Source: a virus | Taxonomy: Duplodnaviria > Caudoviricetes | Virus record (IMG/VR): IMGVR_UViG_3300023184_000132 | Location: 1 to 60,962 of that record | Reading direction: 5' to 3' (one strand) | Length of the DNA: 60,962 nucleotides | Part shown: positions 8,048 to 31,311 of the stretch, in pieces | Layout: each line of letters begins with the position of its first letter | Position numbering within the stretch: position 1 is the first letter of the stretch | Made by a program: the position numbers and the translations under genes | Notes under the pieces: generated by a model | The model's database searches: none | The model's input: the letters and a program-made list of their open reading frames with translations, nothing else | What the model was told of the DNA's origin: nothing

Positions 8048-8821
8048 TTTTTATCCTTTAAGATACTTTCATAATATAGTATAGTGCGTAATATGGTGGT
8101 CGGTTTTCGTGTGGCTGATCTCCACTACCTATGGTGGGCATAGGATTACCACTACTATCAACTGCGGTTCCTGTAGTTGCAACCATAGAACCAGAGTCTT
8201 GATATTCACCCCCTCCTGCATGTTTTTCTTGTAATTCTCCACCATTTTGCACCGATATAATTGTTGCTCCTGCTGTACTTGTAGCAGAACTCATATAAGG
8301 CGTTGGGGTTGTAGTGCCTGTGTAAACTGAACAAAATGCTCCATATTTGTGTTTATGATTTGTTAAATTTGTTATTGATGTTGGAACTTGTGATGCGGTT
8401 AGAGTTACTGTATTTGAACCACCTTTGTCACCGACGGTATACGACAATCCTGCACCAACAACGAATTTGTCCGTAAGATTTGGTGTGCCATTTTGACCAT
8501 TACAGATAGCCCATCCTGCAGGAACTAATGCCGCAGTTCCGCTCCACATAATAATTCCACCAACAGGGAATCCCAATCCCCATGCAGGAGGACTTCCTGC
8601 GCCTTGAGAGACTAACAATTGTCCTGCAGTTCCTGCGGATTTGGAAATTGAAGTTCCAACATACAAAGGGCCCATTATTGCAACAGTTCCTTGAGTAGTT
8701 ATTTCAAATTTGGAAACTTGTAACGAATCTGTAACTAAAAATCCAGGAGAAACAGTTACTTTGTTTCCAAATGCAGGCTTAATTGTTTCTACTTTTAGTT
8801 CTGACATTGTTTATCCTTTAA
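8030..8821 (-). repeat. 32-bp near-identical direct repeat spanning stop codon, RBS and first codons of consecutive fibre genes (8030-8061 and 8790-8821; partial third copy 7258-7275)
   Basis: Minus strand TTAAAGGATAAA(A/C)AATGTCAGAACTAAAAGTA, one mismatch between the two copies. Confidence 0.9.
8058..8807 (-). CDS. Tail-collar-domain fibre protein (MSELxV family, copy 1)
   Basis: FPVGGIIMWSG...PAGWAICNGQNGTPNLTDKFVVGAG and HENRPPYYALYYIMK, the signature of the phage tail collar domain. Confidence 0.85.
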   Translation of the reverse strand: MSELKVETIKPAFGNKVTVSPGFLVTDSLQVSKFEITTQGTVAIMGPLYVGTSISKSAGTAGQLLVSQGAGSPPAWGLGFPVGGIIMWSGTAALVPAGWAICNGQNGTPNLTDKFVVGAGLSYTVGDKGGSNTVTLTASQVPTSITNLTNHKHKYGAFCSVYTGTTTPTPYMSSATSTAGATIISVQNGGELQEKHAGGGEYQDSGSMVATTGTAVDSSGNPMPTIGSGDQPHENRPPYYALYYIMKVS

Positions 8822-11800
8822 AGAATCTTCCACTTAAACCCACTTTGAATCACAACAGTTTTTCCACTTACAATCATAATTCCACTACCAGGATCTACTG
8901 TGTACACACCTTGTGGATTTTGTGGGAAAAGTGCCGAGTTCATTGTTAGTCCAGTATTTATGGTGGTTAAACCTGTGGAATTAAACATTCCACCGTAAAA
9001 CATTCCTTGAACAGGAACAGTATTCCAAGGAGGCGCATTGCCTGTTGTGTTTCCGTCAAAAATATGTGGCCCAATCTTAACACCAGATCCACGAACTTCA
9101 AGAGACATGGTTGGAGTGTCTGTTCGGATTCCCACCATTCCTGCATCATTTCCCGATCCTCCCACAACAGTAACTCCCCAATTTCTGTTGATACCAGTCA
9201 CACCTTCCACAGTTATTCTTATGTCACGATCAGGGCCGGCAACTATAAGTGCTTCTCCTGAATTTACTCCACTCATAAGTCGCAAATCATAATTTTCCGT
9301 GGTAAGTCCAGGCCCACCCTGATCAAAAGGAGTGGTCAGATCTATAATTCCACCCTGTGCACCACCAATTTTAACCTTACCCCATCCGTAAGGATTTTCC
9401 ACTTCTACTTCTGCGCCTTGTGAAGTAAGAGATCCTGCAAAGAATTTGTACTTACCCATTCCTGCAAAAGTCAATCCTCCACCCACAACAGGAGAGTAGT
9501 GTGTGTCTCCTGTTTCTCTTGACAAAGATTGTGCGTTATAACGAGCATTTGCTCTTCTGCTTGCTGTCATACCAGAATCAGTATGCAATTCCTTTTGTGG
9601 TTGCATGTCATGACGAACATAACGATCATCGTGATTATGACCTGTTAAAATAAGTGCATTTACTTCTGGTCTTGCTCGGATAATCCAATAGGTTACTACG
9701 GCAGGAGGATAATGATAGTCTCCACTGATTCCACCACGAGGAATATCTGCAGTAGATCCGCAACCTGTGCAACCGTGACAACCTGAGCATCCTATGCAGT
9801 CTGCAATACCGTCTATACGATAGCAAGGAGTTATAGGATCGCAACAAGCACATGCAGTGCAACCGCCAGGAGGAGTGGTAGGATCACATATATTTTGTTT
9901 CAACCAAACGCAACTTATGTGTCCATTGTTTACTGATCCTGAATACCCTTGAGCAGCACATGCCTGACACCACTGTCCACCCTGCTTACAGGTGGAACAA
10001 TCTTTGCATTGCTGTCCGTTTACTGATCCACTGCAGCCTTGATTTTCGCATCTGTAGCAGTCACACACAGGACACGATTGTATGAAGCATTGATCTGTAG
10101 CATCGTTGCACTTAGTGCTATTGCACCCGATACAAACATCAGGAGTAGTTCCCTCGTCACCAGTACTTGTAGTAGTGGTTGTTGTGCCTGTTCCGTTACC
10201 ACCGTTACCCCCACCTATAACAACACCACCATTGCCACGGTTGCCACCACCTAATCCACCACCTGGTACAAAGTTAGAAGCAACAAGACCTGCTGATGGA
10301 GAATTTAAAACAGGTTGAACCAATCCATCAAGAACATTATAGGCAAGAGTGTGTAACACATCTCCCACCATCATCATTGATCCGTTGTCTCTGAAATCAG
10401 CACCTGCTCCTGCACCAAATACAGTTCTATTGCGAAGATCAGGAACCAGAACAGTTCCCCAAGTACTTAGTACATCAGTTCTGTGTCTGCCGTATACTCG
10501 AACAGAGTAGTCTCTAGGTGCATTTTGTGCTTGACTAAGCAACAAAGAAAATTGATTTCTTGTATAACCAGATTGTGTGTCTGTTCCGTCTATAAACTTG
10601 CGTAAAGCAGCAGTAATCTGATATGTTCCGTCTACGGAATATACTCTTGCGTCACGGTATGCAATAGTTGCGTTAGTTACTTTGGAATATATTTCTATAC
10701 GAATCAAATCGCCTTGAGAAGTTGATGGAGAAGGGGATGATTGGAAATTTCTATTTCCTCCCTTGATGTACAATTCCACAGCGTTATTACCAGCACCACT
10801 AGGTGTGCCTTCTTCGTCGGCAAAGTTTAGGGTTTTAAAACTAGAAACTGAGGCGTCTGCATAGTATTTTTGATCATCAAATCTTCCGTTTGCAGTTCCT
10901 ATTACTTTATACAGTTCTTGATATACTCCTGGACGCAATTTTCTTCCGTCGCAAAGAATCCACTCGTCACTGAGTTCGTTTAGTGTGCCAGAATACGGCA
11001 TAATGCTTCCAACAGGAACTAAACCTTGAGCGTATATTTCGTCTGTGGCAGAACCGCCCATCATAAATCCAGGTTGTGATAATACCACACCTGTTGCTTT
11101 TCTATTGGACGGCGATCCTGTGATACTTACAGGAATAAACATGTTTTTTGCAATGTAGTATGGATCTCCAAAAGTTGCACCAAAATCTGAAGTTAACCCG
11201 CCATTCAGATTCATCATAAGAGCAACACCTGGCGTAACATCGCCAGGAACTGGAATTGTAGCAAGCCCAGTGTTTACATACACAAATTCGTTGGCATTCA
11301 ATACTTCAACAACAATTCCAACGGTGTCTGCCAAATCAACAGAAAGTGGACTTGCTTTAATATATTTTGTTGCCGTTGCACCAACTGCGTAAGAAACTTC
11401 ACGAACAATGCAATTTCCTGCAGTTAACCCGTGAGTAGTTTGTTTCACACGAATACGATTAGAATCAGATTCCAACCAATTTGAATTTATTCTTCCACGA
11501 CTATCAGAAATAGGAATGCTGTATGCAGTAGAGCCTGCAAATCCTTCGTTTGGTTCTGCAGCACCACCGTAAGGACTACCTGTAGTTGCTCCTGCACCAT
11601 CCAAATAATCAGCATTAAATCCCTTTGCCCACATATTGCTAGTTCCGCCTGATGTGGTGGAGAAACTATAAGGGCCAGTAGTCAAACCGTATATTGTGGA
11701 TAAGGTGAATTCTGTTGAAGATTGTCCTGTTCCGTAGGACAAGACCAATGGAGATCCTGTAGCACCATAATTATGAGAAACTCCCCACACAGACTTGTTG

Positions 11801-13989
11801 TCGTAAGTAAGTCTTATTGTTGGATTTCCTGCTTGACCACTTGTTCCGATAAAAGTAAAATCGTTTTTTGCGTCGCCTGCAGTAAGAGATTTGTTGCGGT
11901 AATTTCGTGCAGTAATAAATCCTGTTTCCGTATCTACACCTAAGTTTTTATAAGAAATCCATGCTTCACTAGAACTTTCCCAAACAAAAGTTTTATCTCC
12001 ACTAAGACCCTTTACTGTCAGTCCTGCTCCATCAAGTTGAGCATCGGTAAAGAAATCTGTGGTAGCACCATCAAACGACAACAGAGTAAAGGATGTTGGG
12101 CCAGTAGGAGATTTAAATTTAACTTTTCCACCTGTTTGAAAATCTTCAGCTCCACCTGCACTAAACATAGAACCGATGCGTACCTGAGCAGTCATGCCAC
12201 TTACTGGCCCTGTAATACTCTTAACCACACCAATTACTTCTGCGGTTGAGCCTGGATTTGCTGCATAATCGTCATAGAACGCACTTGCACCTACAATATT
12301 CAACGCATACAATTGTCGAATTGCCGCAGAAGGGCCTGTAATAGTAATAAGACCTGATGTTTGGTATGCTAGTTCAATATTTTTATCTTCTATACGAAGA
12401 TCGTTGGAAGCAATAAAACTATTATTTCCACCTACAAGCAAATTACCGTTAATTGTAACATTACCGTCCATTTCAAGGGCAGTAAATTCCAATTTTGGAG
12501 GCAGCATAAATCGAGCTTGAACAGATTTTGGTGTTCCGTCTTTCACGGTGGAAACATCACTCATATCTTTGAATATAAACAAATCGTTTCCTGTAACTCC
12601 ATTCATACCAGAGTTTATTGGAAGTGTTCCAGGATCTACAAACATCTTACCTCTAAAATTATTAGAAGTAGTTGTATTGGAAGGGTGTCCCCAAGTTATA
12701 CCAGGCCCGTTTTTAAAACCAATTCCGACAACACCATTGTAATTACAGTTGTCTTTGCCACTTACAAGTTCTATACCTGTGAGTCCTGCTATTTCGTACA
12801 GATTTAATGGATTTACTGCGTCAATAATTTGATTGGTTCTGTCGTACCATGTATGAAAAGTGTCAGAAAGAACAAGTCGGTCTATATTGACAAGATCTTG
12901 GCAACCAACTGCGGTTCCTCCTTTACCCTGCAAAGGATCGCAACAACTCACGCAACCACATGCTGTTCCACCACCACCACCACCAATACCAGTTGCTCCG
13001 TCTGCTCCTGCAGGCCCAACCACAGTTCCTGCGTTGATTGTTGTGGAGTCTGAAAGAACAAGTATAAGATTGCCGTCAGGAATACTAACATACGCATTAA
13101 CAACATTTACTCCAACACCAGTTGCTCCTGTTGCTCCTGTTGCACCTCGAACTCCTGTTGTGCCTGTTGCTCCTGCAACTCCTGTTGCTCCAACTACTGT
13201 TCCTGCTTCTATATTAGAAGTTAATCCAGTAGAGTAATCTATTATAGTAAGGATAAGTTTATTGCCAGTAACTATGGCAGAGTAAATAGAAGTTCCTGTA
13301 GTTCCTTGAGAACCTGTAACTCCTACGCTTCCTGTTGATCCTTTTAATCCTTGTGCACCAGTTGCACCTGTTGGGCCTTGTGCTCCTGTTGAGCCTGTTG
13401 CGCCTTGAACTCCTGTTGAGCCAGTTGCACCTGTTGGGCCTTGTGCTCCTGTTGAACCTGTTGAGCCTTGCGCGCCAGTTGCGCCTTGCGGGCCAGTTGG
13501 GCCTGTTGTACCTGTTGCGCCTGTTGCTCCCTTTAGTGCTGCAGCGCCAGGTATACCTTGCGGTCCTGTTGCTCCTGTAGGGCCTGCGGGGCCTTGTACA
13601 CCTGTTGCTCCTGTAGGGCCAGCACAACACGGGCCTGTTGGGCCAGTTGCACCTGCGGGGCCTTGTACACCTGTTGCTCCTGTAGGGCCAGCAGATCCTG
13701 TTGCGCCTGCAGGGCCTGTTGCACCTTTTGAACCAGTTCCACCTGTTGGGCCTGGACTGCCACCTCCCGATATCTTTGCAGTACAAACAATAGTTGTGGT
13801 GCTTCCATTTCCGTCTATGGTTCTAGCACAATCACAGAAAGCTAAACAGTCGGCGTATACTGCATCATCGTATTGGGTAATGCAGGTGGCAATATCTGCC
13901 ATACATGTTGCACAAGAAATACCAGAGTTATAAACTCCTCCATTTAGAATATTGTCATCGCAAAAACCTGCGGGTGGTGTGGCTGGCAT
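8818..13989 (-). CDS. Large tail fibre with collagen-like repeats, split tail-collar domain and Cys-rich inserts
   Basis: Long (G-X-T) runs; [16 protein letters not shown] attachment-like motif; [10 protein letters not shown]; collar pieces [11 protein letters not shown] / WILCDG / VPDLRNR / YWIIRA; VGIRTDTP...LEVRG repeat. Confidence 0.85.
13100..13765 (-). repeat. Collagen-like GPT/GAT/GST codon repeats, including an exact 42-bp duplication (13583-13624 and 13652-13693)
   Basis: Translation [13 protein letters not shown] etc.; cctgcggggccttgtacacctgttgctcctgtagggccagca occurs twice. Confidence 0.9.
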
Positions 13990-19315: not shown

Positions 19316-19322
19316 TATTTAG
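19316..19322 (-). promoter_or_regulatory. T4-type late promoter variant (CTAAATA)
   Basis: Minus strand CTAAATA-TAAGGAAAACAT-ATG, overlapping the gp8 stop codon. Confidence 0.6.
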
Positions 19323-21796
19323 AACTGAAAAAGAACTTTAATTTCTTCTCTTTGTTCAATATTCCTTTTAATAGGTTGCGTGTTCTGTATGTAGACAAGT
19401 TCGCCCGACCGATACTGTAACTCTTCTTCGTGTAAAACTGTACCGACTTTAGCGTTTGCGGTCAGGGCTCCTCGGTCAATAAACTCTAAGTTTGTGTTGT
19501 TAAACGATCCTTTTACACCTGAAAGTCTTAAAGTTCCTCCAGTAGAACCCACAGGATTTACAGACCATTCTACTACTAGACCTGTTCCTTGTGTTGTTCC
19601 TCCTGTTACTCCTCTTACCAACTGATCAGAAACAAAAGAAGATCCGAAAAATGGATTGGCAGCGCTAGTAAGAAGAGAAAGAGTGGTTGTTTGATCGTAG
19701 ACCGATACTGAATTTTTAGTAATTTCTCCAATATCAATTATTTTTGCAGTTCCCGATGCACCAGTTATACCAGAATTTGGCACCATAAAGAAGTTGGATT
19801 CTACCAACTTTTCTAATCTTGTTGGAATTTTGGTAGCGTCCTCAATATACAAAGTTCCCAATGCATTATTTCCTGGCGCAGTTTGCCAACTATTAATTAT
19901 ACCAGTAAACCTAGAATTTGATATGTTGTTTTCTCTGTTACCAATGCTGTTTACCCACAATCCTGGTCGAAAATCCAATCCATCTCCTCTAAATTCCGAA
20001 CCTGATGCTCCTGATGCAGGAGTAATTTTAAGACGAAGAAGTTCTCTTCCTTCAGTTCCTGCAACGATTCTTTGATCTATATCAACAATAGTAAAATTTC
20101 CACTACTAGCAGAACCTGTCGTGGACGAAACAATACCGTCACAAAAGAACGATCCACCTGTAACAGATTCCACAATAAGTTCGGAAGATCCATAGTATCC
20201 TGTAACTCCGCTACTCCAACTTACTATGTTTCCTCTGGCAGGACTAAATCCTGTTCCTCCTCCCGATCCTGTCAACCCTTGAGTCAAAACTGAATTTGTC
20301 TTGAAACTGCCTGAAAGACCCCATTCCTGAAAACGGAGTCGTGTTTGTGGTTTCTTGAGAAGAGGGTTTTTTACTATTCCAAACTGTCTGTAATCGTTAT
20401 TAACTGACAATTTGCTGCGTTCGTTTTGATCAAAATCTAAAACTACCATCATTGCGGCAGCACCCAATTCTCTTACCGCATCTTTTCCGTGGCCTCCTGG
20501 AGGAGACAGTACAATATTTGCAGCATCGTTTATACTTCCAGTTCCTGTGAATCCTGCAGTAAAAGTTAATCCTTTTACCATATTAAACTCTGCTCTGCTG
20601 TAACCGTATCCTGTGTCTACCATCTCAAAAGAATCTATCAGAGTTTGGTTGTAAATGTTTGTAACATTGCAGGAATCTCTAGAAGTGGTTAAGCCAGGCC
20701 CAAACTTGATGGTTATGTCTGCTTCTTTAAAATTATTAAGATAATTATCTCTAGAACTTCCGTCACCAATTATTTCCAAATTTGGAACTATAGAGAATTT
20801 ACTTGCGTTTGCACCACTTCCTGATAGACCAATAGTTAATGGACTGTCTAGGGTAATATTTCCGTAATTTCCTATAGGACTGTAGGTATACGATTTGATA
20901 ATTCTTCTTTGGCCCTCGCCTGCTCCAGAATCTACAGAAAACACCAAATTATTGTAGAAGTTATTGACACCAATCAGAAACGGACTGTATATGCGAACAG
21001 ATCCTGAATACCCGTCAATATAGTTTTGTTGAACGCTATTTCCGTTGTCTGGCAAAACACAATTTACTGCTGTAAGATACGGACGATACTGTTGCTTTAA
21101 TTCTACAAACGAAATTTCTCCGTCTATTGCTGCTTCCTGTACATTCCACTGCAAAGATCGTTCTTCGTCTACCAATTTCAAGTAGTCTACATGCTCTACT
21201 GGAATGTATCCTTGAACAATAATTCTTTGAAATGCTGCAGAAAAACTAGAAGTTTCGTCATATACAGTTTTTGTAATAAACTTTCGTTTACTTTCAGGAA
21301 TCATGTATAAAAATTTCCAACGATATCCGTCAGACAATTTTCGTATTTCTGGATCTGTATGGGTAGGAGCAACAGAAGAGGGAGAATTATAGTAATTATC
21401 AATACACTTGTACACTCTAGTTTCGTCTACTATTACATAAAACCTGACAGGATAAGTAGGATCAAACAAATCAGACGAATATCTGTAAGATTCGTATACT
21501 GAACCCAATTTCCAATCAAATCTTGGTATGACTAAGGATAAATTGTCTTGTGTCAACCGCTTTGCTGCAACTATATTTTCCCAAAATTGGGTTTCGGTAT
21601 CGTCAGTATCCTCTGCCATAGGAACTGGACTAGCATAGGTGGAACTCAATCCTGCTGCTACTTCAGTTTCCCAAGGAGTAATTCTTCCTATTGTTAAAAA
21701 GTAATTATTTTTTGAAAATATTGATATATCTGAAAGAACTATATCGGATAAGTGTCTTCTGAAGTTTTGTCGTATTGGTGAGCAGGAGGAGGACAT
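19319..21796 (-). CDS. gp8: Baseplate wedge subunit gp8
   Basis: IPRFDW..G..Y..Y, RVYKCIDN...S.VAPT, DGYRWKFLY, PPGGHGKDAVRELGA, NDYRQFGIVKNP, SGELVYIQN..PI.R...Q.EEIK. Confidence 0.9.
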   Translation of the reverse strand: MSSSCSPIRQNFRRHLSDIVLSDISIFSKNNYFLTIGRITPWETEVAAGLSSTYASPVPMAEDTDDTETQFWENIVAAKRLTQDNLSLVIPRFDWKLGSVYESYRYSSDLFDPTYPVRFYVIVDETRVYKCIDNYYNSPSSVAPTHTDPEIRKLSDGYRWKFLYMIPESKRKFITKTVYDETSSFSAAFQRIIVQGYIPVEHVDYLKLVDEERSLQWNVQEAAIDGEISFVELKQQYRPYLTAVNCVLPDNGNSVQQNYIDGYSGSVRIYSPFLIGVNNFYNNLVFSVDSGAGEGQRRIIKSYTYSPIGNYGNITLDSPLTIGLSGSGANASKFSIVPNLEIIGDGSSRDNYLNNFKEADITIKFGPGLTTSRDSCNVTNIYNQTLIDSFEMVDTGYGYSRAEFNMVKGLTFTAGFTGTGSINDAANIVLSPPGGHGKDAVRELGAAAMMVVLDFDQNERSKLSVNNDYRQFGIVKNPLLKKPQTRLRFQEWGLSGSFKTNSVLTQGLTGSGGGTGFSPARGNIVSWSSGVTGYYGSSELIVESVTGGSFFCDGIVSSTTGSASSGNFTIVDIDQRIVAGTEGRELLRLKITPASGASGSEFRGDGLDFRPGLWVNSIGNRENNISNSRFTGIINSWQTAPGNNALGTLYIEDATKIPTRLEKLVESNFFMVPNSGITGASGTAKIIDIGEITKNSVSVYDQTTTLSLLTSAANPFFGSSFVSDQLVRGVTGGTTQGTGLVVEWSVNPVGSTGGTLRLSGVKGSFNNTNLEFIDRGALTANAKVGTVLHEEELQYRSGELVYIQNTQPIKRNIEQREEIKVLFQF

Positions 21797-21810: not shown

Positions 21811-24800
21811 TCAAATCAATTGATAATTAAATTCCTTTATTGTGGTGCTGCCTGCAATAACGGCATTTGATGTGTTTCGGAAATAGATCTTCAGTCTATA
21901 GATGCAGTTATTGTTTGGAATTTGAATTCCTTGGTAGGCAAAAGACCCACCAAACACTCCTCTGCCTAAACTTACAGCACCTGGCTCTGACAATGGGTGT
22001 TGTGGGTTTATAAACGGAAAAGTGATTTTTACAGTGTTTGCAGAAGTTGCCATTGGCCCAACTGATGCCATTTGGTACTCTTTACCTGTGGAATCCACGA
22101 TAAACAAATCTGCCCACATGCTTATTGCTGCATAGTAACTAAGATACAGCATGGTAGACAATCCTGCTGAACTTCCAGTCTCACTTATAACACCAGTAAC
22201 ATCAATGTAAATTGATTTGTTGTTGGGTAAACTGCCCACAATATTGTTGGAATCTGTGCTCCAATCTGCACGATCAACATATACTCCGTTTATAGTGGTA
22301 GCCTTTACTTGAGGAACTGGTGGTGGCTGAACATCGGAATTCTTGCAGTCAAATTCAGGCCCAACAGGCATGGTTAAGAATGATCTGATTGTAACTTTTC
22401 GGAAATCGGAGTATGCAATTTCTTTACCTATATTTAAAAATTCACTAATACCACCTGTTTCTCCGCCAGTTCCTCCGTTAGCATTGCAACCACAAGTTTC
22501 TTTGCAATATGTGTGGTTTAGTCTATATGCGTATACGCAATCCGCAGGAACGCACTGACTGCAATTTTGGTAAGGTTCTTGAGTATTGCAATTCACACAC
22601 AAATCACAACCGTCTCCTACGCATCCTCCTGCAACGCAAGCATTACAATCTTGAGTTGAAGTGCATCCACACTCATAGCAGAATTCGTGATTTATGTTGA
22701 ATTGGTCATTACACTCGTTTTGTGTACACTGATTACACAGGGTATACCTTTGTTGACACCCGCAACCCAAACAAAAATCGTGATTTATAGAAGTATCAAA
22801 ATCGCAATCGCCTTGCAAGCACTCGTTGCAGTTTGTGTATTTTCCGTCTCCACCTCCACCATAACAATCAGGACACTGTGTTCTGCAAAGAATACCGTTG
22901 CAATTTAATCGTAAACACTCTGCACAATCTACTACTTCAGAAACACATCCGCAAGTTTTGCAGAATTGATTATTAACACTTGATACATCATCACAGTCTA
23001 ATTGTGTGCATTGATTGCAATTGCTGTAAATATTTGAGCATCCACAATCCACACAAAACTGATGGTTTGCACTAGAAGTAATACCACAATCTCCTGTTGT
23101 ACACTGGCTACACAGGGAGTATCGTTGATCGCATCCTCCACAGTTGTAGCATCCAGAGCAACCAACGCAATCGTATCCACCAGTTATATTAAAGCAATCG
23201 TAAATTTCCGAACAGCATCCGCACCCTGTGCATCCTGTTGCTCCTGTTATACCACACCCTGTGCATCCTGCACACCCTGAACATCCCTTACAGTCGTAAA
23301 TTCCTGTAACCGTATTGTAACACGGTAAGTCCAACCATGTGCTGCATACCGCGCAACCAGTAGGCCCTGCGGATACTCCTGTAATTCCACACCCTGTACA
23401 ACCACCGTATCCTGAGCATCCCTTACAGTCGTAAATTCCTATAAAGGTGTTCCAACACTGAGTTCCGTTTGCAGTTATACCGCAGCAGTTTGCACCTGTG
23501 CAGGAAGGCTCTATTACAGAACATCCTGTGCATTGCCAGCATCCTGAGCATCCTACACAATCGTAGGCAGATGGAATATTTGTTGTATAGCACGGATCTA
23601 TTTGAGAACAACGAGCACATCCTGTTGCAGGTGCAGTTACTCCACACCCTGTAAATCCAAAGCATCCTGAACATCCTATACAATCTTTAAGTCCTGTTAC
23701 TCTGTTGTAACCACCAGTCATGCATTTTTGGCATGGTACACTAGCAGTTCTGCCACAACCTGTGCAACTTGCACACCCTGAGCAACCCACACAGTCGTAA
23801 AAACCTGTAACAATATTAAAGCATGCTCCTGTGGTACTAGAACTGCAGCAACCACAACCTGTGCAAGAAGTGGGGCCTGTAACACTGCAACCAATACAAC
23901 CGTGACAACCTGAGCAACCTTTGCAATCATATATTCCGTTAACAGTAAAGCATGGATTTGTTGGACTACACAATGCACACCCTGTTAGACTTGCAGTCAT
24001 TCCACAACCAGTGCAACCGTTAAACCCTGAGCACCCTAAACAATCGTACATGCCAGTTACAATATTAAAGCAAAGTGTTCCGTTTCCTGTAGTACCACAG
24101 CATGCAGTTCCTCCTGAACCAGAGCATCCTGTAGACCCTGTTGTTCCTGTCATTCCACATCCTGTGAATCCAAAGCATCCTGAACATCCTATACAATCTT
24201 TAAGTCCTGTTACTCTGTTGTAACCACCAGTCATACAGCACTGACATCCAACACAAGGAGCAATAGTAGTGCAACCGTCACACCCAAAGCATCCTGAGCA
24301 ACCCGCGCAGTCATAAATTCCCGCAAGAGTATAGCATGGAAGGTCGGCACGACACAAATTACAGCCAGTTGCTCCTGTTGCTCCTCTAGAACAACCAGTA
24401 AACCCATGACATCCTGAGCAACCTTTGCAGTCATAAATTCCTTGTACTGTGTATCCTAGATTTGTTGAACTACACAAGGCACATCCTGTTGCTCCTGCGG
24501 TTTGACCGCATCCTGTACAACCGTAACATCCTGAGCAACCCTGACAATCTAATTGTCCTGTCCAAACATTTACGCACGGCACTCCATAGGAGCAAGATTC
24601 GCATGGATCGGTTGGTGTTACTTCGCACCCTGTGCAACCACCGTATCCTGAACAACCCGCACAGTCGTAAATTCCGTAGAAAGTGTTAAAGCATTGTGTG
24701 CCGTTTGCAAGCAAACCGCAACAAAGAGCTCCACTGCAAGTTGCACCAGTTACACCACAACCAGTACACCCAAAACATCCTGAGCACCCTTGGCAATCGT

Positions 24801-27800
24801 AAATTCCTTGTACAGTATAGCATCCGTTTTGGCAACAGGCACAACCAGTACAAGAGCAGTTTCCTGTTTCTGTGAGTGTCCCACCGTAAATATAATCTTG
24901 CTCTATTGGTTCAAACACAACAGGAATCAATCCCATATCAATAACAGACTTGATGATTGGCCCTCGTGCCATTTTTATTTCGTGCGCGCAACCACTGCTG
25001 CCACGAACTACTAGGTCTATAGAATTAGAAAAATTCATTCCGATCCAAGTTTCGTGATCTGGTGTGAAATAATTTGCAAGACCAAAAGAAGAATCTACTT
25101 GAGTTATTCCACTAGGCGAATAAAAATCAATATAAGTAGGATTCATTCTGTGTAGATAATCGCAAGCTCTTCCTTCAGTAACATATTTAATGGATGGATG
25201 AGAAACAGTTGTAATTAGAGAGTAATTATCTACGGTACTTGGACTTACTGCTGAAAACTTATTCCAAGCATCTAATCCAGCTATTCCCTTAGATATTCCA
25301 CGAGTATTATTTGTTATATTATCCACAATACTTAAATTGTTTTGAAGAATAGTAACATCAAAACCAGTAGAACCCATTGGATACAAATTAGAATTGTCAA
25401 ATTCTATATTGGAGTATATACTATTTCCTAACCAAAATCCTACTTGTTTTGTGTCATCTAAAGCGTCTACCATTGTTTTCATAATGGTTTCTGCATTGTC
25501 CATATTATTAGTAATAGAAGAGGTTACTCCTGTTGGGGAAGTGTATACTCTGTTTGGTTCTGTCCAGTGTGTAACAGATCTTGGTGGATAGTTTGCGCCT
25601 ATTTTGTAGGAAAGACCACTTGGTGTCCATATCATGGCACGATCCCAACCCTTATTTTCTAATTGGTCTTTAATATATGCAGCAACACCAGTGTATCCAA
25701 TGGTATTAGGATAACCACCGACAAGAGTATAGTTTACACTATTTTTGTCCCATCCGTATGGGTTATAATTTGATGCTGTTGGACTTGGTTCGATAAGGTG
25801 TTCTAATGCTAACGGTATTCCTCGAACTGGACGATAGTCGGGTATGTAAGTTTGTGGAGGATACCTACGATCTAAAAATTCTTTATAAGGAGTAAGTGTT
25901 TCTATTACTGCTGCAGAATCTGTTCCTATTCCGATAGAACCCATTCCTATTAGATTTGCTTGAAATCCTGCTACTGGTGGAATTTTTGCAAATTTTATAA
26001 TTACTTTATAGGTTTTGCTTTGACCTGCTGCTAATTTTGCTTGTCCGTTTTGCGTAATTTGACTTTCGTTCCATGTAGCAATCTGAAAACTAAATCTGTC
26101 TTGATATGCTTTATAAAATGCGTTTCCTTGTTGTGCTAATATAACACTCGGTGCATCTTGTGGAGGAAACGCAACCAAAGAAATTTCGTGATTGTCGTCG
26201 GAAGGAGAATACTCTGTAAGTGCTACACTAACAGCAAAATTATTGTCCACGCAACATTCACCACTAAATTTAGTTTTTGCAAGATGAATTGGAGAATACA
26301 GTTGACTTGGATAATTTGAAGAAAAAAGACGAGAATTTTTATCTAAGTCTATAAATGCACCCACTCCTGATCCAAAAGAACCAGCGTTAATTCTTGTGTC
26401 AAAATAAGAAACACTTTCTCCTAGATCCATTGGTGGTAAATCTGGCCACGCCATGTATTTTTCCGTGGTGCATGTGTTGTTATAGGCATAACTTATTTCT
26501 AAAGAATTGTCTGCGTCATTTTGTGCCACACTTATACTAGGAGCAATTTCCGCAGAAGAGCAAGAGGTTGGTGTAGTTTTTGGTTTCCAACCATTAATAA
26601 TATTTCTGTTACCAGGCCCGTATACATTCCATGCGTTTTCTATGGCATTGAATTGAATACTAAAGTCTCCGTCCAATCCAGTATTGTACAAACCATTCCA
26701 ATAAGTAAGTGCAGCAGACCACTGAGAAGCACCCATATTGTCTATCATACTCCACACATGGTCTACTTCTGCTGCTGTTGTTCTTTGGAAATTACCACTT
26801 GCTTGACCGTAGGTTACCAATTCAAAGGTTGCTCCCACCGCACCAAAACTAATAATGTCTCCAGGAGTAAATATGTGTCCCCATTTTGGTCGTTGGTTTG
26901 TAGGAGAAGGATCGGTGTTTGCAGAAATTTTGGCTAATTCTGCAAAAGTTCCTACAGGATTGGGTACACCCATGCTTGTTGGGTACGGAGCATTTCCACT
27001 TGTCATTCCGTGCGTGATTCCGTCCATCATCATAAGGTCTCGGTCACGATTCTCGTAAGGAGGAATACCATCGTAATTTACGGTAGTACTACTGAACCAC
27101 ATACTGCTATCAGCTCCTTCATACTGACCAAAAATTGGGCCACCAACAAAGAAGTACGGTTCTACTGCAATTTCTACTTCGTTTGGTTTGTTAGGAACTG
27201 ATCTTACTGCTTTAACATAACCAATTCTGTCTGCCGTATTCCATCCCTTATCTTTATAAGAGTTTCCGTCAGAATATGAAAATACAGTGGACGATCCTGT
27301 TAATGAATTAAACAGGGGATTTGAAATAATAGCACCAGTTACTCCTACTCCTGCTCTCTTTCGGACAGGATTGGTTGGTCTTTTGTCGTCTGCTGGTCTT
27401 GTGTCGCGATGATTAAACGCAAAAGTAGTTCCAGGCACCATACCCATAGGAATTGTCCACCTTCCGTCATTAGATGTTTTCTTTACACGAAAATTCCATT
27501 CACGAAGTCTTGACCAATCCAAAACCTTTACGGCAGGATTATCGGTATCTGGCACAAACCATGTAGGGAAAGTGGAACTTAAATACGAATATTTGTGGGG
27601 TTCTAGATAGTTGTATTGTGCAGCATATTGACCAGTAACTCCATCTAAAAATGCTTGATACGCAACAAGATTTTTACGACAATGGTACATTAGACTGCTT
27701 GTTTCTAAGGGTAGAGGAGAGGATGATGTTGGCCATGTAGGAGAAATGTCTCCTCCTTGCCACGGATCACCGTCATTAAATTGACCTCCCGCAATGCGCC

Positions 27801-30800
27801 AACTAACTCTAGCAGTACCATTTTTTCCTACAATATGACTGCCGCCTGTGGGTGCTCCTGGTCTACCGAATGCTGTATTCCAATCCCAATAAGGTTCGTA
27901 TCCGTGTCCTAGTGTGAATGGATTTTTTTTCCAATCTATAACATTTCCGTTCGCATCCATTACTTCTACAGTTTGTGGATTTTCTATACTAATTCCTAAT
28001 CCAAACTGACAAGCATAAGTTTGCTCGCCTGTCCACATGTAAAAACCGTCTACTGCTCCTTTGCTTTGTCCAGAAAGAGAAGGAGCGATATATAAATCTA
28101 CAAATTGGTTTGGTGTATAATAACTAAGATCTTGGACAGAGGTTATATACGCACCGTAAGTTAAGCCTCTAGCGTATCCACCGTCACCAGTACCTTGCGT
28201 GAAGGCCTTGTTAGAGATAAAAGGAAGAATGTATTTTTTGGTAGGCTCAATTCCTGCGTCTGACTGCTCTTGAAATATTTGACTTTTCCAACTTGACAGC
28301 ATTGAAATAGTTTGGCTTGCGATAAATTTCTCAAAAACCAAATCTCTAGTAGCAGTATAGAAAGAAGGTTGCCAACCAGACACCGCCTTGCAAAAAGGAT
28401 ACCATTTTTCTTTGTGTAGTTTTTTAGAAAACTCTGTATTTTCTACTGCTTGGTTTGGATATACAGTGCTGTATAGGTTTCTTCTTGCTTCTACAGATGC
28501 TTGTCCCACCACTCTGTTTGGATCTAGTGAGTGCAAAACTATTCTGCCGTCCCAAACACAGGTCGGACAAGTCGCAGAAGGAGCATAAGAAGTGTAAGTA
28601 AGACCTGACGGTAAAGTAAGTGTTTCTCCTATTGATCCTCTTGCAAATTCGCCTCTTCCTCGGAATCCAGGATATCCATAATAATTCTGAATATTTCTAG
28701 GTGCTACGCCTGGATGACCGTAATTTGCAAATATGGCATTTGGAAAATTCTCTTGTAATCCTCCAAAAGTTGTTCCGTCTGGACTGACTCCTCCAACAAA
28801 CATAGGAATTAAAATTTTATCTCTAATAAAATTACCCACAGAATTTGGATTGTCTGGATCTGCTATTCCTTCAGACTCGGAAAATAAAGCATCCCAACTC
28901 TCAGTGTTCATGCTAATAAGACCAGTATAGTCTGCAGGGAATGGGTTTAGATTATCCCATCCTCCACCAGAAATTCCATTCCAATCTGGTCGTATCTCGC
29001 CCCTCAAGGATCTTACCATTTTAGAAACTGCTTCTTTAGTTGTAGCAGTCAAGCCACTTATTCCTAAGTGTCCAGTTTCCTTGCAATTGTTGCACGGTAA
29101 TCCGTATCCACCTGTAACTGAACGATAAGTTAAATAGTGCGAACTTGTTGCAGAATCCCAATAAGCAAAATGGTTATAAGATAATGGAGGAGGAACTACA
29201 GCAGGTGTTGTGAGTAATTTGTTGGGGTCTTGTGACAAATAATTCTTGGTTGTGTCCGACAATCCTCCAGTCTGAATGGTTGCTTGACTAGGAGGAAGTA
29301 TTCCTATTACATTTTTGCCGTCAGCAGAAAATTCGTATTGAGCGGGAATATCAAAATTTACTGCTTTTCCTGCATTGCTTGGATTAGTAGAAAGTAATTG
29401 TGATTCGTTAGAATTGTCGGAACTTAATTTTTCAAAATTCTTTTGACCTGCGTATGTAAACACATTGTCGTAGTAAAATATAGGCAGCAGTTTTCCTGGT
29501 TGAACAAGACTAGATTTGTTTGGAGCAAAAGATACAGTTTGTGGTTGGTAATACGATTGTGTATAATCTTTAAGAGGATTATAATTCAGCATAACATATC
29601 GTTCACCAGAAGTAAATCCTCCTGACCACTCCTCTCGGTTTGCAGTAGACGCTTCTGTCCATTCCATCCAGTATCCTGTAGTTCCTGTGGACTGACCTGT
29701 CACTGTCATTCCAATTTGGTTTCTTCCTCCAAGATCAGTTAAGAATTCTGTTTTAAGATCGTATGGAATTCTAGCAACTACTGGCCCACGAATTCTACGG
29801 TTTGGATGCTGATATATGATCCAAAACGGATCTGCATTTTGAAATCCTGCAGTTTTTAGTGCAACCAAAGGATTCATGAATTCTCTTGAAAAAGTTACAG
29901 GATTTCCTATACTTTTATAATACTCTTCTGCGGTGGTGCCGTTCAGCAACGACAATGATATATCTCCCGAATCAATAGTACCGTTCTCGTCTAGGTCGTT
30001 TTGTATAGTCTTGTTGTGTTGCGTTGGATCGTATCCTGCAAGCAATCCTGTATACGGATCAGAAAACCAAGGAGACAAATCGTCGTTGGTTATGAATGTA
30101 TATGGAGTATAGTGACCAATAATAGGAACATCGTACTCAAAAAGAGAAGTGCTTTGTTGAAGATCCGCAACCGCACACCGTTTAATTTGAACCTTACCAA
30201 AGAATGCTAAGCCTGCAGGATTCAACAATCGTTTAAGAATGTCTCTGTAACGATCAATTGTTACTTCACTTAAAATTACATACGAGTAATTTTGATAGAA
30301 ATGATTGTCCTGCATTACTTTGTTTGTGCTTAGTCTGCCGTCATTGTTTGCGTAGTAACCCGCATACTCTGATACTCCACCCACCGAAACAGATCCAGTA
30401 AATCCAGTACCAGATTCAGACGATACAGTAATTGTTGGAGCAATCTTGTAGTTTACTCCAAAGTTGTCAATTATAAATTTGCGTATTTTTCCGTTTGTGT
30501 CCACTTCTCCAACTCTGCCTGCCGCACGAACTCCTGTGTCTCCAGCAGCAGGAGTAAAAATAATTCTGTCCCCTGTTTTATAGCCAGTTCCTGCATCATT
30601 AATTGTAATTTTACCAAGTACAGAAAATACTCTATTTTCTTTACGAACAACCCCGTCTGCATCGGCAAATTCTATACCGTAATTACCAGAAACAAATTCA
30701 CCGTTTACACCACCCAAAAACAGTTCTGATATATCGTTTGTGCCTACTCGATATGTACTAACATCCAACACACGAGCACTAGCAAGGATACCACCGTCAT

Positions 30801-31311
30801 CGTTTCTTTGAATTACGGTTCTACCCACAGAGTCGTAAATTGTTTTTCCTGTGTTGTTGCCTACTTTAATAGATCTGCGAACTACCCATTTTCCGTCAGA
30901 CAACTTTAGAATGTCGTTTTTAGGATAGTAAAATTCCACAGAAGTGTCGTATAGAATTCTGAAAAGAAAGTCATAGGTTTTCTCTGTACCTTTTGCTCGG
31001 TAGAAACCTTTGATGTTTTTCATTAATTTAATTGCGTCTACAGGTTTTTTTGTTACATCCGATACTGCCATAGTTTCAGGAAAACCAAACAAATATTCAT
31101 TTTTAAAATTAGCAATAAACTCGTCAAGAGTTCTGTCAATATCTACAACATTTCCTAGTTTTTGCGGAGATCGCAAATAAGTATTGTCTGCATCCAACCA
31201 CTCGTAATAAGATGTAAGGAATGCAACAAGGGTAGGATGATCCACCCTAACAAATTCGGGTAACTGTCCTGCTATAAATGTAGAGATTGGGTTTGAGTTG
31301 TTGTTAGTCAT
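21811..31311 (-). CDS. gp7: Giant gp7-like baseplate wedge initiator (3166 aa) with accessory barrel-like domains and Cys-rich repeats
   Basis: QLPEFVR.DHP..V.FL..YYEW, KNIK.FY.AKGTEK...FLFRILY, YYPK..ILK.SDGKW, QDNHFYQNYSYVI, L.PAG..FFG. Lies between gp6 and gp8. Confidence 0.85.
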   Translation of the reverse strand: MTNNNSNPISTFIAGQLPEFVRVDHPTLVAFLTSYYEWLDADNTYLRSPQKLGNVVDIDRTLDEFIANFKNEYLFGFPETMAVSDVTKKPVDAIKLMKNIKGFYRAKGTEKTYDFLFRILYDTSVEFYYPKNDILKLSDGKWVVRRSIKVGNNTGKTIYDSVGRTVIQRNDDGGILASARVLDVSTYRVGTNDISELFLGGVNGEFVSGNYGIEFADADGVVRKENRVFSVLGKITINDAGTGYKTGDRIIFTPAAGDTGVRAAGRVGEVDTNGKIRKFIIDNFGVNYKIAPTITVSSESGTGFTGSVSVGGVSEYAGYYANNDGRLSTNKVMQDNHFYQNYSYVILSEVTIDRYRDILKRLLNPAGLAFFGKVQIKRCAVADLQQSTSLFEYDVPIIGHYTPYTFITNDDLSPWFSDPYTGLLAGYDPTQHNKTIQNDLDENGTIDSGDISLSLLNGTTAEEYYKSIGNPVTFSREFMNPLVALKTAGFQNADPFWIIYQHPNRRIRGPVVARIPYDLKTEFLTDLGGRNQIGMTVTGQSTGTTGYWMEWTEASTANREEWSGGFTSGERYVMLNYNPLKDYTQSYYQPQTVSFAPNKSSLVQPGKLLPIFYYDNVFTYAGQKNFEKLSSDNSNESQLLSTNPSNAGKAVNFDIPAQYEFSADGKNVIGILPPSQATIQTGGLSDTTKNYLSQDPNKLLTTPAVVPPPLSYNHFAYWDSATSSHYLTYRSVTGGYGLPCNNCKETGHLGISGLTATTKEAVSKMVRSLRGEIRPDWNGISGGGWDNLNPFPADYTGLISMNTESWDALFSESEGIADPDNPNSVGNFIRDKILIPMFVGGVSPDGTTFGGLQENFPNAIFANYGHPGVAPRNIQNYYGYPGFRGRGEFARGSIGETLTLPSGLTYTSYAPSATCPTCVWDGRIVLHSLDPNRVVGQASVEARRNLYSTVYPNQAVENTEFSKKLHKEKWYPFCKAVSGWQPSFYTATRDLVFEKFIASQTISMLSSWKSQIFQEQSDAGIEPTKKYILPFISNKAFTQGTGDGGYARGLTYGAYITSVQDLSYYTPNQFVDLYIAPSLSGQSKGAVDGFYMWTGEQTYACQFGLGISIENPQTVEVMDANGNVIDWKKNPFTLGHGYEPYWDWNTAFGRPGAPTGGSHIVGKNGTARVSWRIAGGQFNDGDPWQGGDISPTWPTSSSPLPLETSSLMYHCRKNLVAYQAFLDGVTGQYAAQYNYLEPHKYSYLSSTFPTWFVPDTDNPAVKVLDWSRLREWNFRVKKTSNDGRWTIPMGMVPGTTFAFNHRDTRPADDKRPTNPVRKRAGVGVTGAIISNPLFNSLTGSSTVFSYSDGNSYKDKGWNTADRIGYVKAVRSVPNKPNEVEIAVEPYFFVGGPIFGQYEGADSSMWFSSTTVNYDGIPPYENRDRDLMMMDGITHGMTSGNAPYPTSMGVPNPVGTFAELAKISANTDPSPTNQRPKWGHIFTPGDIISFGAVGATFELVTYGQASGNFQRTTAAEVDHVWSMIDNMGASQWSAALTYWNGLYNTGLDGDFSIQFNAIENAWNVYGPGNRNIINGWKPKTTPTSCSSAEIAPSISVAQNDADNSLEISYAYNNTCTTEKYMAWPDLPPMDLGESVSYFDTRINAGSFGSGVGAFIDLDKNSRLFSSNYPSQLYSPIHLAKTKFSGECCVDNNFAVSVALTEYSPSDDNHEISLVAFPPQDAPSVILAQQGNAFYKAYQDRFSFQIATWNESQITQNGQAKLAAGQSKTYKVIIKFAKIPPVAGFQANLIGMGSIGIGTDSAAVIETLTPYKEFLDRRYPPQTYIPDYRPVRGIPLALEHLIEPSPTASNYNPYGWDKNSVNYTLVGGYPNTIGYTGVAAYIKDQLENKGWDRAMIWTPSGLSYKIGANYPPRSVTHWTEPNRVYTSPTGVTSSITNNMDNAETIMKTMVDALDDTKQVGFWLGNSIYSNIEFDNSNLYPMGSTGFDVTILQNNLSIVDNITNNTRGISKGIAGLDAWNKFSAVSPSTVDNYSLITTVSHPSIKYVTEGRACDYLHRMNPTYIDFYSPSGITQVDSSFGLANYFTPDHETWIGMNFSNSIDLVVRGSSGCAHEIKMARGPIIKSVIDMGLIPVVFEPIEQDYIYGGTLTETGNCSCTGCACCQNGCYTVQGIYDCQGCSGCFGCTGCGVTGATCSGALCCGLLANGTQCFNTFYGIYDCAGCSGYGGCTGCEVTPTDPCESCSYGVPCVNVWTGQLDCQGCSGCYGCTGCGQTAGATGCALCSSTNLGYTVQGIYDCKGCSGCHGFTGCSRGATGATGCNLCRADLPCYTLAGIYDCAGCSGCFGCDGCTTIAPCVGCQCCMTGGYNRVTGLKDCIGCSGCFGFTGCGMTGTTGSTGCSGSGGTACCGTTGNGTLCFNIVTGMYDCLGCSGFNGCTGCGMTASLTGCALCSPTNPCFTVNGIYDCKGCSGCHGCIGCSVTGPTSCTGCGCCSSSTTGACFNIVTGFYDCVGCSGCASCTGCGRTASVPCQKCMTGGYNRVTGLKDCIGCSGCFGFTGCGVTAPATGCARCSQIDPCYTTNIPSAYDCVGCSGCWQCTGCSVIEPSCTGANCCGITANGTQCWNTFIGIYDCKGCSGYGGCTGCGITGVSAGPTGCAVCSTWLDLPCYNTVTGIYDCKGCSGCAGCTGCGITGATGCTGCGCCSEIYDCFNITGGYDCVGCSGCYNCGGCDQRYSLCSQCTTGDCGITSSANHQFCVDCGCSNIYSNCNQCTQLDCDDVSSVNNQFCKTCGCVSEVVDCAECLRLNCNGILCRTQCPDCYGGGGDGKYTNCNECLQGDCDFDTSINHDFCLGCGCQQRYTLCNQCTQNECNDQFNINHEFCYECGCTSTQDCNACVAGGCVGDGCDLCVNCNTQEPYQNCSQCVPADCVYAYRLNHTYCKETCGCNANGGTGGETGGISEFLNIGKEIAYSDFRKVTIRSFLTMPVGPEFDCKNSDVQPPPVPQVKATTINGVYVDRADWSTDSNNIVGSLPNNKSIYIDVTGVISETGSSAGLSTMLYLSYYAAISMWADLFIVDSTGKEYQMASVGPMATSANTVKITFPFINPQHPLSEPGAVSLGRGVFGGSFAYQGIQIPNNNCIYRLKIYFRNTSNAVIAGSTTIKEFNYQLI
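22486..23121 (-). repeat. Cys-rich type B/C array: Y-x-x-C-x-x-C-x4-C-x7-N-H-x-F-C-x-x-CGC (5 copies) interleaved with a shorter DCxxC unit (2 copies)
   Basis: Order B-B-C-B-B-C-B read directly from the translation. Confidence 0.88.
23131..24860 (-). repeat. Cys-rich type A array: 14 units with core (Y)DC-x-GCSG-C-x-G-C-TGC
   Basis: Counted 14 DCxGCSG cores in the translation; includes an exact 68-bp duplication (23654-23721 and 24167-24234). Confidence 0.92.

Follow-up and report, generated by a model that had tools for sequence, protein, structure and literature searches.

The baseplate wedge protein gp7 of phage T4 is a chain of 1032 amino acids (aa) in structure 9f4a, and among the giant wedge proteins of T4-like cyanophages (phrog_17744, phrog_4406, phrog_2885 and phrog_701) a large size attained by added domains is common, with PHROG profiles of 3231 to 6136 positions. 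Disulfides have been described in other virion tails; they link the baseplate wedge and the fibres of the cyanophage Pam3 (PMC9942802), and a disulfide network cross-links all tail components of the Agrobacterium phage Milano (PMC10811340). In the literature searched, supplementary files aside, no Cys-rich repeat array was found to be described in a phage baseplate protein. The locus studied here is a gene for a gp7-like baseplate wedge protein of 3166 aa (P0001) on the viral record IMGVR_UViG_3300023184_000132, which was analysed over its whole stretch of 60,962 bp (the window), an entire IMG/VR contig estimated to be 34% complete. P0001 shares with the giant wedge proteins the N-terminal wedge hidden Markov models (HMMs) and the gene order, but none of the wedge PHROG profiles covers its residues 2150–2960, in which two consecutive arrays of Cys-rich units are found. 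Judged by sequence comparison, the units of the first array represent a new family of 40-residue modules restricted to one lineage, and the arrays are rather likely to be a chain of disulfide-stapled mini-domains acting as a tough tether or stalk.

An earlier note on this DNA had described an array of 14 units and about 575 aa at positions 23131–24860, in agreement with the units of array 1 as delimited here by cutting after the last core Cys (Table 1). P0001 contains the motif DC.GCSG exactly 14 times, between residues 2172 and 2714 and with a spacing of 37–51 aa, and the degenerate DNA pattern of the unit core gave 15 matches in the window, 14 in the P0001 gene and one in a fibre gene at 9760–9801, compared with none in each of 100 shuffles. 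The consensus of array 1 was found to be ...TGCxCCS....CYNTVTGIYDCxGCSGCxGCTGCG, the units ending in DCxGCSGxxxxxGC with invariant core residues D, C, G, C, S, G, G and C. The Cys residues of P0001 are concentrated accordingly, with 160 of 173 falling within the 100-residue bins that span residues 2101–3000. The GxTG linkers previously proposed hold exactly for four of 13 linkers (GVTG, GMTG, GITG and GITG), most of the others being GxTA or SVTG and two being of another kind (TTIAP and SVIEPS). The analogy with collagen, likewise proposed, is borne out by a tripeptide periodicity across four triplets (about four G-C-x triplets per unit) but does not extend to the collagen family itself, as residues 2138–2970 gave no PF01391 match in Pfam at E ≤ 10. 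Array 2, which was not reported in the earlier note, directly follows array 1 and is built from a different unit, C-x2-C-x4-C-x10-C-x2-C-x-C with NHxFC, besides two shorter variants. Six Cys were present in each of its seven units, 42 per protein, in all six proteins examined, and a search for array 2 among proteins of 406–2000 aa returned the orthologue fragment P0006 as sole match.

The evidence on the state of the Cys residues comes from natural variation among the units. The positions of a full unit were labelled Ca-x2-Cb-x-Cc-Cd ... C3-[aromatic] ... D-C4-x-G-C5-S-G-C6-x-x-C7-x-G-C8 and compared over 102 units from seven proteins or contigs (P0001, P0002, P0003, P0004, P0006, L020 and a contig with 18 units). 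Eight Cys were found in 72 units, ten in 24 and six in four, so that the count is even in 100 of 102 units (13 of 14 in P0001 alone); the odd count of 11 is confined to unit 1 of P0001 and P0002. Cd, C4, C5 and C8 are present in 102/102 units, and the other six positions vary in strict pairs, C3 with C7 (both in 91 units, neither in 11, discordant in none), Cb with C6 (both in 81, neither in 21, discordant in none) and Ca with Cc (both in 54, neither in 48, discordant in none). Cross-pair controls were not concordant; C3 against C6, for example, gave 70 units with both, 32 discordant (21 + 11) and none with neither. In P0001, units 4, 6 and 10 lack C3 and C7, units 2, 7 and 12 lack Cb and C6, and Ca and Cc are jointly present in units 1, 2, 6, 7, 9, 12 and 14. 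The same coupling was observed between orthologues, with C3 and C7 of units 4 and 6 missing in P0001 and P0002 and both present in P0003, P0004 and P0006, and with Ca and Cc of unit 10 lost jointly. Where a Cys is lost, G, F, Y, A, T, K or S stands in its place, but in no case His. The even counts and the gain and loss in fixed pairs are those of disulfide-rich repeat modules, which are a structural class and not a sequence family. Even counts together with obligate partners are not predicted by metal sites, Fe-S clusters or enzymatic Cys modification; they point to disulfides within the molecule, and we infer that the coupling reflects disulfide bridges. Among the three readings offered in the earlier note (an array that binds metal or Fe-S, a stalk locked by disulfides or a target of Cys modification), the disulfide-locked one is favoured by the even counts and the coupling, Fe-S clusters and Cys modification are disfavoured, and Zn held by the four invariant Cys is possible.

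The proposed arrangement is that of 14 independently folded mini-domains of ~40 aa, each of which would be held by three to five intramolecular disulfides, followed by the seven 6-Cys units of the second type. The tripeptide-periodic (Gly-Cys-Xaa)4 core, which may be an extended strand laddered through its Cys face to the unit's N-terminal half, would present its Cys to that half within the same unit, the bridges predicted from the coupling being Ca–Cc, Cb–C6 and C3–C7, with the other two drawn among Cd, C4, C5 and C8. Leading directly into the conserved C-terminal wedge domain, the arrays would tether the outer domains of the insert in which they lie (described below) back to the baseplate, and such a tether would be resistant to proteases and shear in oxygenated lake water. 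We infer the stalk role and also the timing of oxidation, by which the bridges would form after the reducing cytoplasm is left, or else through an oxidase not seen in the genome fragments.

Several points weigh against such a chain of disulfide-stapled domains. Phage tails assemble in the reducing cytoplasm, and ~78 bridges per chain would have to form correctly. The coupling of presence and absence among Cys positions is an indirect sign of S-S bonds, and the 102 units come from seven related proteins and are not independent, so that Fisher p values overstate their independence; the independent support for the pairing consists of 14 old paralogues and three orthologue-level events. A stalk is suggested by position, and the insert departs from the wedge protein and returns to it almost at one place, so that the array could also be compactly packed. 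The C-x2-C spacing and the exactly four invariant Cys also resemble a Zn(Cys)4 site. Genes for Erv1/ALR, thioredoxin, glutaredoxin or DsbA were found in none of five records (0/5), and the same was true of genes for radical SAM and YcaO enzymes; the absence of both redox and maturase genes is weak evidence, because these records are fragments only 7–34% complete and because the Erv1 search matched 0/14 control genomes and is uninformative. In AlphaFold2 (AF2) models, three units were predicted poorly (mean predicted local distance difference test score, pLDDT, of 52.9, lowest in the linkers). One unit, predicted from a unit alignment of 53 sequences, reached a mean pLDDT of 72.6 and a predicted template modelling score (pTM) of 0.50, with 32 of 46 residues at 70–90; in line with the disulfide reading, it shows hardly any regular secondary structure, a common trait of small cross-linked domains. 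Comparison of this one-unit model with the PDB gave no match (Foldseek, 0 at E ≤ 10; VIA-align, 0 of 48,161 chains at Z ≥ 2), although for a model of 46 residues empty fold searches show neither novelty nor identity.

The rival that survives best, itself unlikely though not far-fetched, is a Zn hybrid, in which Cd, C4, C5 and C8 would bind one Zn per unit in the manner of a zinc ribbon or knuckle and the units would fold in the cytoplasm, the optional pairs being disulfides or extra ligands. The presence of exactly four Cys positions in 102/102 units is what such a site would need, C4-x2-C5 forms a CxxC knuckle followed by Gly, assembly in the cytoplasm generally favours Zn over disulfides, and the weak, non-significant matches in the PDB sequence searches, eS27 (E 0.85) and PsaC (E 0.035), are Zn- or Fe-S-binding proteins. 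Nevertheless, no zinc-finger, zinc-ribbon, zinc-knuckle or DnaJ-type CxxCxGxG family was matched in Pfam at E ≤ 10 or in NCBIfam at E ≤ 1, nor was there a significant match among PDB sequences; His never takes the place of Cys, a metal site does not account for the strict pairing of six among the ten positions, and Zn(Cys)4 sites are readily oxidised in oxic water. A bolder version of the disulfide reading, rather doubtful as it stands, would make the unit a new "cysteine ladder" fold, in which a row of disulfides on one face would staple a collagen- or polyproline-II-like (Gly-Cys-Xaa)4 strand to the N-terminal half of the unit; 14–18 chained copies of the unit would form a redox-sensitive baseplate tether. 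The wedge could then be loosened by reduction at the host surface, which could help to trigger contraction, as has been proposed for Pam3 and Milano.

It is also conceivable, but improbable, that the array is a docking platform whose Cys would be joined through intermolecular disulfides to the Cys-rich N-termini of two other tail proteins of the window, the collagen-like fibre P0005 and the RCC1-repeat protein P0007. The fibres of Pam3 are reported to be held covalently by wedge regions rich in Cys (PMC9942802); N-terminal Cys clusters are present in both P0005 and P0007, and unit 1 of P0001 and P0002 carries one unpaired extra Cys. However, the even counts (100/102) and the coupling within units leave no free Cys other than that one, which is absent from P0003, P0004, P0006, L020 and the 18-unit contig, and 14–18 units are many more than the fibres of a wedge would call for. 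An array of Fe-S or metallothionein-like clusters for redox sensing or metal storage is very hard to sustain. The core C-x2-C-x2-C-x2-C-x2-C does include a ferredoxin-like CxxCxxC, and the best PDB sequence match was photosystem I PsaC (E 0.035, 15.5 bits), but this match is not significant and Pfam gave none; C6, the third Cys of CxxCxxC, is absent in 21/102 units and C7, the fourth, in 11/102, the strictly conserved 4Fe-4S signature CxxCxxCxxxCP is lacking, no CP motif occurs, the conserved aromatics and ~20% Cys are unlike metallothionein, and clusters would not outlast exposure on a virion to the oxic water of a lake. Scarcely credible too is a substrate for enzymatic modification of Cys, to thiazoline or thiazole as in Cys-Xaa-Xaa bacteriocin precursors or to radical-SAM thioethers, for while the Cys-Xaa-Xaa periodicity of the core resembles heterocycloanthracin precursors (PMC2674419) and TIGR03601 was the only NCBIfam match of a single unit, that match lies far below the family level (E 0.78, 10.4 bits against a cut-off of 35), the missing YcaO and radical SAM genes count against it, if weakly in view of the fragmentary records, enzymes acting on each Cys separately would predict neither strict pairing nor even counts, and the context is a structural protein of 3166 aa, not a short leader-core peptide. 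The chain of disulfide-stapled mini-domains is the reading retained in what follows.

The array was found to be kept, unit by unit, in seven orthologous proteins or contigs, P0001 included. Over the array region P0002 is 94% identical to P0001 and P0003 and P0004 are 67% identical, while the C-terminal fragment P0006 and the incomplete L020 also carry the array, and one IMG/VR contig, obtained by reading the adjacent loci L109, L012 and L078 together, counts 18 units, one unit pair being present in an additional copy. Contigs of four other sequencing runs, from four lake or freshwater studies, cover the array stretch. In one of them (X5), a strain ~94% identical and at ~50-fold depth, 30/30 bins were covered with substitutions only and no indels; among 40 of its 179 differences, 24 are synonymous, as are 7/7 of those in Cys codons. 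Contigs of two others (X2 and X3) cover parts of the stretch at 99–100% identity, and the short contigs of X2, X3 and X4 lie over 25, 17 and 15 of the 30 bins, the gaps between them proving nothing. At the DNA level the units of array 1 have diverged, with a mean identity of 0.67 (0.45 at third codon positions) and a longest exact shared stretch of 68 nucleotides, between units 6 and 10, and Tandem Repeats Finder reported no repeat of unit length in the array. The assembly artefact that the earlier note had kept in view is ruled out by the seven orthologues, the independent contigs, the absence of indels in X5 and the divergence of the units in DNA. In an alignment of five proteins (the 18-unit contig and the incomplete L020 being left aside), 156/162 Cys columns are invariant, compared with 337/655 of the other columns. 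One record of X2, at a depth of 57.7, touches positions 23249 and 24368 with 23 other letters between (window 23249–24385); the loose ends of X2 there are rich in collagen-like codons, and no joint is listed. Rather than a deletion form, this odd record probably reflects cross-matching by a different repeat gene of that metagenome.

The placement of the arrays within the protein became apparent from shorter relatives. Searching with the C-terminal 206 residues of P0001 retrieved P0008 (800 aa) and P0009 (796 aa), neither of which contains a Cys array. In BLASTP, residues 2–584 of P0008 align with residues 3–587 of P0001 at 81% identity and residues 593–800 with residues 2960–3166 at 67% identity, with nothing between the aligned segments. 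Because these relatives of about 800 aa lack residues ~588–2959, both arrays lie in an accessory insert that separates two conserved wedge parts. The arrays make up the last third of the insert, array 2 stopping at its C-terminal boundary, and residues 588–2141 of P0001 gave no Pfam or PDB sequence match. Longer forms, P0002 (4235 aa) and P0004 (3687 aa), hold additional inserted domains, which in P0002 include the RCC1-type Pfam families PF13540 and PF25390. The gp7-like genes of the lineage thus come in forms of about 800, 3120–3166, 3687 and 4235 aa, with 14 or 18 Cys units where the array is present. Such variation in size and unit number among close relatives suggests that the insert is modular and variable, as would be expected of a part that interacts with the host. 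The sequences show the Cys arrays to be a lineage-specific addition. The earlier placement of the array inside baseplate gp7 is correct as to the identity of the gene, given its HMM matches and gene order, but needs to be amended in that the array sits in an accessory insert of ~2370 aa, outside the conserved wedge fold.

Table 1. Positions of the features described. Coordinates refer to the window, except those preceded by a locus name.
Feature	Position	Strand	Remarks
Gene for gp7-like baseplate wedge protein (P0001), 3166 aa	21811..31311	(-)	Single open reading frame
Conserved N-terminal wedge part, residues 1-587	29551..31311	(-)	All Pfam and PHROG wedge matches lie here
Accessory insert, residues ~588-2959	22435..29550	(-)	Absent from the 800-aa forms P0008 and P0009
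Array 1, 14 Cys-rich units, residues 2152-2729	23125..24858	(-)	6, 8, 10 or (unit 1) 11 Cys each
Array 2, 7 units of 6 Cys, residues 2730-2959	22435..23124	(-)	Directly follows array 1
Conserved C-terminal domain, residues 2960-3166	21814..22434	(-)	Common to the short gp7 forms; no Pfam match
Single 10-Cys unit in collagen-like tail fibre P0005 (gene 8818..13989), residues ~1367-1412	9754..9891	(-)	Pattern match at 9760-9801
RCC1-repeat tail protein P0007, 1160 aa	2946..6428	(-)	44 Cys; Cys-rich N-terminus
(Cys-Ser-Xaa)n protein	L018:3254-3895	(-)	Example; ~90 loci besides the five in this table
(Cys-Ser-Xaa)n protein	L019:945-1484	(-)	Example
(Cys-Ser-Xaa)n protein	L064:8983-9564	(+)	Example
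(Cys-Ser-Xaa)n protein	L036:1026-1925	(-)	Example
(Cys-Ser-Xaa)n protein	L047:1934-2464	(+)	Example

Searches of Pfam, NCBIfam and the PDB, by sequence and by fold, returned no significant match to an already described repeat family. Pfam gave nothing on residues 2138–2970 even at E ≤ 10, NCBIfam at E ≤ 1 gave only the collagen-like adhesin Lcl (16 bits against 500) and the TIGR03601 family already mentioned, and none of the PDB sequence searches with both arrays and the unit profile was significant, PsaC and eS27 being the best; the ESM Atlas yielded no usable match. A profile HMM of the 14 units, compared with 1.84 billion representative proteins, retrieved two at E ≤ 0.001, namely P0001 itself and the orthologue fragment P0006. 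With the gene and its Cys region, megablast and tblastn found no match among 50,697 GenBank phages, a search in which the low-complexity filter may mask repeats, and a search of IMG/VR with the Cys region alone gave no confirmed relative. IMG/VR was then scanned by the degenerate DNA pattern of the core, which gave 179 matches in 110 stretches; when their contexts were read by eye, true units were found in only eight loci from five contigs, corresponding to orthologues of P0001 and to L003, a fibre orthologue. In cellular genomes the same pattern gave no true unit among the at least 120 stretches listed (124 matches). Two cellular matches that passed a loose filter were, among the matches listed, tripeptide repeats and not units. 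The lack of relatives in Pfam, NCBIfam and the PDB and the restriction to this lineage among 1.84 billion proteins make the unit a candidate new small fold.

The assignment of P0001 to the wedge family is based on its N-terminal ~400 residues, where the baseplate wedge HMMs match. PF23786 (Baseplate_wedge) was matched at residues 73–138 with 36.3 bits against a cut-off of 27, the PHROG profile search gave phrog_17744 with an E value of 4.1e-57, and the match to the T4 gp7 chain of 9f4a was weak (E 0.0036). The gene holds the position of gp7, flanked by a gp6-like gene (phrog_219, 31321–33234) and a gp8-like gene (phrog_438, 19319–21796), with a gp5-like hub and a gp48-like cap upstream and a phrog_358 structural protein and a collagen-like fibre downstream. 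Other genes of the window encode a gp32-like single-stranded DNA-binding protein, neck proteins, a sheath stabiliser and ribonucleotide reductase, and the source phage is an uncultured T4-like myovirus. The N-terminal 504 aa of P0001 matched 247 GenBank phage records, all at less than 60% identity and mostly Synechococcus phages or cyanophages, and there is no close relative among the 50,697 GenBank phages. Near-identical DNA was found in lake and freshwater metagenomes, in comparisons with four runs from four studies.

The module is not confined to the wedge protein. The tail fibre P0005, which matches PF01391 (E 2.9e-14) and a phage tail collar domain, contains a unit that aligns with those of array 1, and the fibre orthologue on L003 likewise has this one unit. 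Further Cys-rich stretches precede the unit in P0005, which also has an N-terminal Cys cluster, and all of these are kept in the L003 orthologue. P0007 has two RCC1-like repeat blocks, matched by the Pfam families PF13540 and PF25390 as in P0002, and many of its Cys lie in N-terminal CxxC-type motifs that differ from the array unit. P0007, too, probably serves as an adhesin or at the periphery of the tail. Cys-rich modules were found only in the peripheral tail proteins P0001, P0005 and P0007, the core baseplate and tail proteins having 0–0.6% Cys.

The DNA pattern of the core also retrieved a second group of phage proteins, of 177–300 aa and widespread in IMG/VR, with runs of (Cys-Ser-[Gly/Asp/Arg/Tyr])n in which Cys stands at every third residue. 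A short N-terminal domain (..NGNRCSVEYWGS.EEA..AL.SL..) is followed by a pure repeat run and, in most of those read, by a conserved C-terminal domain (..ALNMG.WHTC.TTHCRAGW..), from which L047 differs. These proteins have no Pfam match, belong to phrog_15341 and phrog_31265 and include (Cys-Thr-x)n and (Cys-Ile/Val-x)n variants; the run recalls heterocycloanthracin-type precursors. Residues 2505–2687 of P0001 match phrog_15341 weakly (E 1.8e-4), but proteins of phrog_15341 and phrog_31265 possess no 40-aa unit, YDC motif or N-terminal half-unit, and the resemblance is probably compositional.

Of the known systems, Pam3 and Milano resemble the reading proposed for P0001 in being virion tails whose proteins use disulfides. 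As far as the two reports describe them, their bonds involve a few single Cys in ordinary domains and are mostly between subunits, whereas P0001 has ~157 Cys in 21 mini-domains with bridges that are apparently within units; no sequence relationship was seen, and none was tested. Variant-specific surface proteins of the protist Giardia (VSPs) are exposed CXXC-rich proteins that resist proteolysis, extreme pH and temperature, according to two reports (PMC6341118, PMC3656445). They offer a functional analogy only, as the lack of Pfam matches indicates no homology and the unit architecture, organism and cellular setting differ. Glycine-rich polyglycine-II domains of adhesins (S16/T4-type gp38 and Pam3 gp24) have Gly at every third residue, as the Pam3 report indicates (PMC9942802), and by analogy the (Gly-Cys-Xaa)4 core could adopt a similarly extended left-handed strand; those domains, however, contain neither a Cys ladder nor tandem units of 40 aa. 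What is new is the family of modules, while disulfide-rich repeat modules and disulfide-stabilised phage tails are kinds already known.

Should the stability of the units match what their composition suggests, protein engineering could also use them as compact rigid spacers. The bridge pattern predicted from natural variation is directly testable by mass spectrometry, and the natural forms with 0, 14 and 18 units provide a ready-made comparison. The array also raises the question of how dozens of disulfides would be formed correctly in a virion assembled in the cytoplasm. Disulfides in phage tails have been seen only recently, and in Pam3 and Milano they amount to a handful of bonds; here, a freshwater T4-like lineage spends ~800 residues and ~157 Cys of a baseplate protein on 21 modules and reuses the module in a tail fibre.

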